This document shows positions 63,158 to 63,248 of a stretch of 64,000 nt of DNA, piece after piece. Position numbers and translations under genes: made by a program. Numbering within the stretch: the first letter of the stretch is position 1; each line of letters begins with the position of its first letter. Source of the DNA: a virus (Duplodnaviria; Caudoviricetes); the IMG/VR virus record IMGVR_UViG_2876643526_000002, positions 16,420 to 80,419 of that record. One strand, written 5' to 3'. A model generated the notes under the pieces. The model was not told the DNA's origin. It worked only from the letters and a program-made list of their open reading frames with translations, and did no database searches.

Positions 63158-63248
63158 GAGATATTGCCGGATTCGAACCAACATTTCCATACGATAAGAA
63201 CGGTATCTTCTAGTTGTATGACGTGCTTCCATTTACACCAAGTATCTC
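63158..63248 (-). ncRNA. tRNA-like RNA with 23-nt anticodon loop and G-1:C73 acceptor
   Basis: G+AGATACT/AATATCT+C, D arm GTGT/GCAC, TCATAC/GTATGG stem, T loop TTCGAAT. Confidence 0.75.

Follow-up and report, generated by a model that had tools for sequence, protein, structure and literature searches.

A tRNA-like RNA with a histidine-type acceptor end and a conserved 23-nt loop in place of its anticodon loop, encoded in the tRNA cluster of a probable Segatella/Prevotella phage

The tRNA genes of phages are usually regarded either as helpers for codon usage or as replacements for host tRNAs that are cleaved by defence systems. Some phage tRNAs evade or compensate for tRNA-cleaving defences, as those of phage T5 do in the case of PARIS, and RNA repair enzymes are often encoded alongside. 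The T4 species 1 and species 2 RNAs (rnaC and rnaD) are small, stable and non-decoding RNAs of 120-140 nt, which are encoded in the phage tRNA cluster and matured by the tRNA machinery. Two kinds of viral RNA resemble a tRNA in its top half and are handled by tRNA enzymes without decoding, namely the 3' His-accepting structures of tobamoviruses and the tRNA-like units of murid herpesvirus 68. The G-1:C73 pair is the major identity determinant for histidyl-tRNA synthetase (HisRS) and is sufficient for the charging of minihelices. The tRNA introns of the Lak megaphages of Prevotella have been called "enigmatic": their sequences are highly conserved, and how they might be removed is not known (Devoto et al., 2019; PMC6784885). 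According to the same study, the insert in the tRNA-Tyr of genome A1 is about 90 nt long, tRNAscan still assigns a normal anticodon to this tRNA, and one of the Lak inserts may itself encode a tRNA (PMC6784885).

The window analyzed here, a stretch of 64,000 nucleotides, is the final 64 kb of an 80.4-kb IMG/VR virus record. Its gene content, which includes a tape measure protein, RecT, SNF2 helicases, an HNH homing endonuclease, DUF4494 and DUF3127, points to a tailed phage of Bacteroidota. An exact match to the enlarged loop described below was found on one high-coverage contig binned with a Segatella copri MAG, and the host of this phage is therefore probably Segatella/Prevotella. We noticed that the helicase-methyltransferase at 59283-61500 (minus strand) is apparently split into a 142-aa frame and a 606-aa frame that overlap at 61072-61103. 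The two halves match the same helicase PHROGs (phrog_62 and phrog_16) at consecutive profile positions, and the split would be consistent with a frameshift at a homopolymer run.

Every tRNA gene of the window is on the minus strand. In cluster order, with the phage RNA ligase added for context only, the genes are as follows:

63639-63713, minus strand: tRNA-Asn(GUU), the first gene of the cluster, called by ARAGORN and Rfam
63158-63248, minus strand: the entire tRNA-like RNA studied here, from G-1 (63248) to the discriminator base C73 (63158), read from the sequence and matched by a family covariance model (104.5 bits, E about 1e-24)
62953-63025, minus strand: initiator-type tRNA-Met(CAU), immediately downstream of the tRNA-like element, called by ARAGORN and Rfam
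62792-62863, minus strand: tRNA-Gln(UUG), called by ARAGORN and Rfam
62565-62657, minus strand: a second insert-bearing tRNA-like RNA with G73, a full acceptor stem, a 3-bp D stem and a 28-nt loop, identified from ARAGORN in intron mode and from the sequence
38438-39679, minus strand: RtcB RNA ligase of the phage (PF01139, 216.8 bits)

The adjacency of the element and tRNA-Met is also retained in distant relatives. A run of eight U follows the element at 62565-62657, so that the acceptor stem of this element may double as the terminator of the operon transcript. The 390-nt spacer between tRNA-Asn and the element under study (63277-63624, minus strand) contained a single, unconvincing frame of 70 aa and had no match in Rfam at E<=10.

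Read on the minus strand, the element at 63248-63158 is composed of the following parts:

63241-63248, minus strand: G-1 and the 5' strand of the acceptor stem (63247-63241), pairing with 63158-63165 to form an 8-bp stem of His type, in which seven of the eight pairs show two-sided changes among relatives
63223-63238, minus strand: D arm of tRNA-Gln type with a 4-bp stem and an 8-nt loop containing GG, assigned by alignment with the host and phage tRNA-Gln; its pairs are conserved
63216-63221, minus strand: 5' strand of the 6-bp anticodon-arm stem, pairing with 63187-63192 and found in at least six paired sequence versions in relatives
63193-63215, minus strand: a 23-nt loop that replaces the 7-nt anticodon loop and is nearly invariant in the family, hereafter the payload
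63204-63207, minus strand: GAUA within the payload, whose proposed partner is UAUC at 63193-63196, with which it would form an inner helix of 4 bp and a capping loop of 7 nt (RNAalifold)
63166-63182, minus strand: T arm with a canonical T loop and a 5-bp stem, in which three of the five pairs change on both sides

A U8 lies between the 5' strand of the acceptor stem and the D arm, the variable region after the 6-bp stem is 4 nt long, and the 3' strand of the acceptor stem (63165-63159) is followed by C73 at 63158. The acceptor stem contains a C6/A67 mismatch in this copy only, where relatives have U6-A67 or C6-G67. The boundaries, the 6-bp stem and the 23-nt loop had all been given exactly in a first-pass annotation of this DNA. 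Its description of a tRNA-like RNA lacking a usable anticodon also stood, given the full cloverleaf and a loop of 23 nt (22-25 nt in relatives) in which no anticodon can be read. Nor was a readable anticodon found in this slot in any copy examined.

The element shares some features with each of the systems mentioned above. Like the genes of the T4 species 1 and species 2 RNAs, it is a non-decoding RNA gene inside a phage tRNA operon, located between tRNA-Asn and tRNA-Met on the same strand; the T4 RNAs, which were compared by description only, are not, however, simple cloverleaves with a His-type end and an anticodon-side payload. The T5-type tRNAs are likewise genes of a tRNA cluster with an anticodon region shaped by host tRNA-directed immunity, but they decode with 7-nt loops, whereas the element cannot decode. 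The tobamovirus and murid herpesvirus 68 RNAs belong to eukaryotic viruses and are built with a pseudoknotted acceptor or as a fusion to miRNA hairpins, rather than as free-standing genes in a tRNA operon. With bacterial tRNA-His the element shares an encoded G-1 paired with C73 in an 8-bp acceptor stem. It differs from tRNA-His in having neither a GUG anticodon nor a 7-nt loop, in having A:U rather than G:C as pair 1:72, and in its D arm of tRNA-Gln type. The Lak inserts are similar in being located in the anticodon region of tRNA genes of phages of the same host group; they differ in that the insert described in tRNA-Tyr is about 90 nt long, compared to 16-18 nt here, and lies in a tRNA to which a normal anticodon is assigned (PMC6784885). 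In the element, no readable anticodon could be restored.

Standard searches passed over the element. It was not called by ARAGORN at default settings and did not match the Rfam tRNA model RF00005 even at E<=10. No Rfam family for it was found at E<=10, no similar DNA apart from tRNA-Asn was found in GenBank phage records, and searches of the literature on phage tRNA decoys and enlarged anticodon loops gave no description of this tRNA-like family. The family is an undescribed tRNA mimic. Because it is absent from Rfam and GenBank phage records and skipped by standard tRNA finders, genes of this kind are systematically missed. In intron mode, ARAGORN reported the element as Ile(UAU) with an 18-nt "intron," the removal of which leaves a non-canonical loop with C37; this placement of the intron is arbitrary.

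Relatives were found with sequence patterns. An exact 22-mer covering the T arm and acceptor stem identified six near-identical viral contigs, and a pattern consisting of the payload core and the T arm identified 91 stretches, nearly all of them gut-phage contigs of 50-90 kb. In all, the element was found in well over 100 viral contigs of such gut phages and in the one S. copri MAG contig. When a covariance model built from 29 distinct copies was run on 93 sources, it recovered the element from 92 of them, with scores of 62 to 108 bits. This proportion reflects the abundance of the element and not its prevalence among related phages, because most of these sources had been fetched by the payload and T-arm pattern.

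The cloverleaf is well supported by the way in which these copies vary. Among 37 distinct sequences, 94.7% of cells were paired, compared to 81% in shuffles, and two-sided changes were found in 13 pairs, a number reached by none of 500 shuffles. The covarying pairs included seven of eight in the acceptor stem and three of five in the T stem. RNAalifold, applied to 13 diverse members, independently returned the same cloverleaf with compensatory changes in 15 of 25 pairs, and the stem of the anticodon arm occurred among relatives in at least six other sequence versions, all of which were paired. Many of the compensatory pairs are G-U, which argues that selection acts on the minus-strand RNA and not on the DNA. 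Homology with relatives ends exactly at G-1 and about 3 nt past C73; the element is therefore a discrete module. It should be noted that the relatives belong mostly to one phage clade, so that many sequences do not amount to as many independent events.

The earlier annotation had argued for selection rather than decay on the grounds that CAUAC..GUAU and UAGA..CCG are shared with the element it placed at 62566. Selection is borne out by the covariation and by the conservation of the payload, whereas the shared motifs do not bear on it, as they are conserved in neither family. Both UAGA and CCG vary in relatives of the 63158 element, whose stem takes the other paired sequences mentioned above, and neither CAUAC..GUAU nor UAGA..CCG is kept in the family of the 62566 element, as seen in L007 (616-707) and in the copy of L063. 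The proposal that these two genes represent similar inserts on two different bodies was likewise misplaced, since the actual pair consists of the 63158 element and a third gene, with A73, that is described below.

The His-type acceptor end, which had also been pointed out in the first-pass annotation, is real and invariant throughout the His-type lineage. G-1:C73 was unchanged in all 29 distinct His-type copies and in distant relatives, despite differing upstream flanks, while in seven rows with an A73 body the covariance model sets G1:C72 in the column of the top pair. It is with G placed at -1 that U8 and the D stem take their canonical positions. In several lineages, CCA is encoded directly after C73. 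In the S. copri MAG, tRNA-His likewise has an encoded G-1:C73, and its CAA trailer is identical to that of the element. No GUG anticodon occurs in the loop of any member. As G-1:C73 is the main identity element for HisRS, the host HisRS would probably bind the element and might perhaps charge it.

The payload is the most constant part of the element. Its consensus consists of AA, 4-5 variable nt, (A/U)GAUACC, 2 variable nt (3-4 in the copies of 24-25 nt) and UCUUAUC. Indels are confined to the position after CC, except that the 5' variable stretch differs in length by 1 nt between copies. Among eight lineage representatives, the mean identity was 82% for the payload and 65% for the body, and that of the payload was higher in all 28 pairs. 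In the RNAalifold structure, the proposed inner helix is preceded by a bulge of 7-8 nt on the 5' strand, and the tolerated indels fall within the loop of this helix. The GAUA/UAUC pairs never vary, and covariation therefore neither supports nor refutes the helix; the independent variants were too few for an analysis of covariation within the payload. Pairing of the base that precedes GAUA with the fourth base of the loop was considered and rejected, as it fails in the commonest lineage. Also rejected were a likeness of the payload to the 16S 790 loop and the 23S GTPase-centre loops, which amounts to 6-7-mers that are unconserved in relatives, and a mini reading frame, which is present in two lineages and absent from this copy. 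Compared with the anticodon arms of the host tRNA-Lys and tRNA-His, the payload is not a copy of either.

The same 23-nt payload is found on a different body. A third tRNA-like gene, located outside the 64-kb window in relatives of this phage (L002, 6573-6673, and L010, 10705-10806, both on the minus strand), carries it on a body that ends in A73, has a D loop of 13 nt and differs from the His-type element in its acceptor, T and anticodon-arm stems. In about 20 relatives this gene is about 240 nt upstream of the His-type element. Conversely, the His-type body is found with other contents in distant relatives that were fetched via a neighboring DUF1064-like protein. While L234, L236, L241 and L242 retain both body and payload, L233 (3590-3679, plus strand) has the same His-type scaffold as L234 with an unrelated payload and a non-canonical T loop. 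In L240 (1848-1921, plus strand) and L246 (3046-3119, plus strand), the anticodon arm of the His-type body consists of a closed 6-bp stem and the 4-nt loop UUUU. This cloverleaf, located just upstream of tRNA-Met, carries a G3-U70 pair, and an element of this type folds into the cloverleaf on its own (z = -2.85). The anticodon-side part is thus a conserved, exchangeable module.

Given the covariation and the conserved payload, we consider it very probable that the element is a selected, non-decoding tRNA-like RNA. A fuller statement, namely that it is a functional, non-decoding tRNA mimic of His-acceptor type that acts as a decoy or handle, is the explanation that we put forward tentatively. 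The element would be transcribed together with the tRNAs of the cluster, cleaved by RNase P such that G-1 is left in place, as in bacterial tRNA-His, trimmed at the 3' end and provided with CCA. The host HisRS would probably bind the mature RNA and might charge it, but the RNA cannot read a codon. Its most likely role would be that of a binding target, which serves as a decoy, sponge or handle for some tRNA-directed protein while phage and host compete over tRNAs. Candidates for this protein would be a defence enzyme of the host that damages tRNAs or an RNA-repair factor of the phage. The sequence-specific contact would then be made by the payload, whereas processing, stability and likeness to tRNA would come from the tRNA body. 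The presence of RtcB and of non-canonical anticodon loops in the related arrays fits such a setting. It is not obvious why a decoy should need a His-type end, and since the second body with the same payload has A73, the identity of the amino acid may be irrelevant.

In a more far-reaching version of this proposal, which we regard as speculative and rather unlikely, the element would be part of a modular RNA counter-defence, in which a His-type body, processed and perhaps aminoacylated as a tRNA would be, displays interchangeable payloads, each serving as a sequence-specific inhibitor of or bait for a host tRNA-directed immune enzyme, while RtcB repairs the real tRNAs. Such a system, if real, would represent a new class of anti-defence RNAs in phages that rely on mimicry of tRNA. 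What the conservation itself shows is that a clade of abundant human-gut phages keeps a non-decoding, tRNA-shaped RNA under purifying selection at its acceptor end and payload. The family thereby offers a concrete and testable case for the role of non-decoding tRNA mimics during infection, where they may be charged, act as decoys or be repaired by RtcB.

The enlarged loop could also mark a precursor in which an endonuclease cuts the loop and the phage RtcB reseals it to produce a decoding tRNA. The phage does encode RtcB, Lak megaphages of Prevotella contain unexplained tRNA inserts (PMC6784885), and ARAGORN in intron mode reads Ile(UAU) here and Lys(CUU) in 54 relatives; a heptamer N-U-CUU-A-U occurs in all members, with UUU for CUU in one lineage. 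The intron-mode calls disagree among relatives, however (Ile, Lys, Ser and Stop), and the Lys-like heptamer is 1 nt out of register with the stem, with a would-be closing base that is paired in some lineages only. Heptamers that look canonical are expected by chance about 2-3 times per 23 nt. The 5-bp stem, position 26 and the 5-nt variable loop have canonical lengths before any splicing, and if this 5-bp stem is kept fixed, position 33 is A or C whichever 7 nt remain, as reasoned from the sequences. The sole bulge is on the 5' strand, 5' of the 4-bp helix, which is the mirror image of bulge-helix-bulge geometry as checked by hand. No gene for a splicing endonuclease (PF01974) or archease was found in the phage, and a pattern designed to match this body with a loop of normal size detected no insert-free allele. 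A conserved insert in a variable body is the reverse of what protein-spliced introns show, and the relatives with a 4-nt loop have nothing to splice. We therefore judge this explanation quite unlikely. Particular forms of it were discarded: bulge-helix-bulge and bulge-helix-loop introns for their mirrored geometry; a Lys(CUU) reading of the 3' heptamer, which besides its register and unconserved closing pair is unlike the loop of the host tRNA-Lys; a Ser, Phe or Leu "anticodon" from the variable triplet after AACU, for which no stem is able to close; and a group I intron, as the insert is about 16-18 nt, compared to about 200 nt or more for the ribozyme core, with no Rfam intron match at E<=10.

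Were the element an antisense regulator on a tRNA scaffold, the payload would pair with phage or host RNA, and the body would serve processing and stability only. This accords with a conserved payload on a variable scaffold and with the swapping of payloads between relatives. The best duplex within the phage genome is -23.4 kcal/mol, though, compared to -22.7 kcal/mol for the best of 20 shuffled payloads; it is weaker with the payloads of relatives, and an 18-mer complement with up to two mismatches was no commoner than a control pattern in 61 Segatella genomes. As the invariant G-1:C73 is also left unexplained, antisense regulation seems unlikely. The phage genome contained no complement to the 5' or 3' ends of the element of the primer-binding-site type. 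We think it improbable that the fold is only a processing or punctuation signal, which directs RNase P and 3' trimming enzymes to the operon transcript for cleavage and has no function as a free RNA. The location between tRNA genes of one apparent transcription unit would suit such a signal, as would the relatives with a bare 4-nt loop, in which the anticodon arm can be minimal, but it gives no account of the payload as the most conserved part, of the same payload on a second body or of the invariant G-1:C73. That the element is a decaying tRNA pseudogene or a site at the DNA level, such as an attachment site or a protein-binding palindrome, is very improbable. Although the record is labeled a provirus and GATA...TATC is an inverted repeat in the DNA, decay and a DNA site are contradicted by the covariation, in which many G-U compensations are sensible only on this RNA strand. 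The element is inside phage genomes of 85-90 kb and not at their ends, and it has no sequence match to the 3' half of a host tRNA.

Some further identities were rejected on more specific grounds. For a tmRNA, the ARAGORN tmRNA search was negative, and the short frame of some relatives is not conserved in this copy. For a bacterial Y RNA (YrlA), the ends of the element would have to be on the anticodon side, whereas they are at the acceptor stem; there was no Rfam match and no TROVE protein in the phage. The element at 62566 bears a likeness to a Cas12a repeat, with a short hairpin ending in GUAGAU, but this hairpin is broken in its relatives.

Many further anticodon loops in the tRNA arrays of related phages are non-canonical. 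In four related phages (including L002, 6170-6249, and L010, 10314-10393, both on the minus strand), a gene resembling an initiator tRNA has a loop of 13 nt where the CAU anticodon loop would be. Other odd genes of these arrays (L014, 366-446, minus strand; L094, 3649-3725, plus strand; L032, 2020-2092, minus strand; L014, 571-643, minus strand) include one with an 8-9-nt anticodon loop and a family whose loops are variable and non-canonical and whose T loop is unusual, as well as bodies of Thr type in which positions 32-33 are AA and tRNAs whose anticodon, UCA, is of opal-suppressor type.

Enlarged anticodon-side loops were also observed in other phages. In Lactiplantibacillus prophages (L095, about 9170-9280, plus strand; L147 and L148), a tRNA-like gene with a 32-nt anticodon loop is located at the edge of the provirus, and an 18-nt insert lies between two copies of the 6-base sequence UUCUUA, the repetition of which duplicates most of the 7-nt anticodon loop; this gene had no match in GenBank phage records. 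In other large gut phages (L096, about 1500-1590, plus strand; L113, L125 and L134), a tRNA-like element without a D arm has an acceptor-like stem, a 7-bp T arm and a middle arm that is a 7-bp hairpin, the tip of which repeats GAUA..CC..UAUC. This element directly follows the stop codon of a gene for a Lys/Ala-rich protein. Finally, a family with a tRNA-Gln-type body is present in gut phages of 87-98 kb (L190, 1620-1688, plus strand; L195, L196 and L198), and its members have a loop of about 25 nt with a conserved small hairpin, A73 and an encoded CCA.
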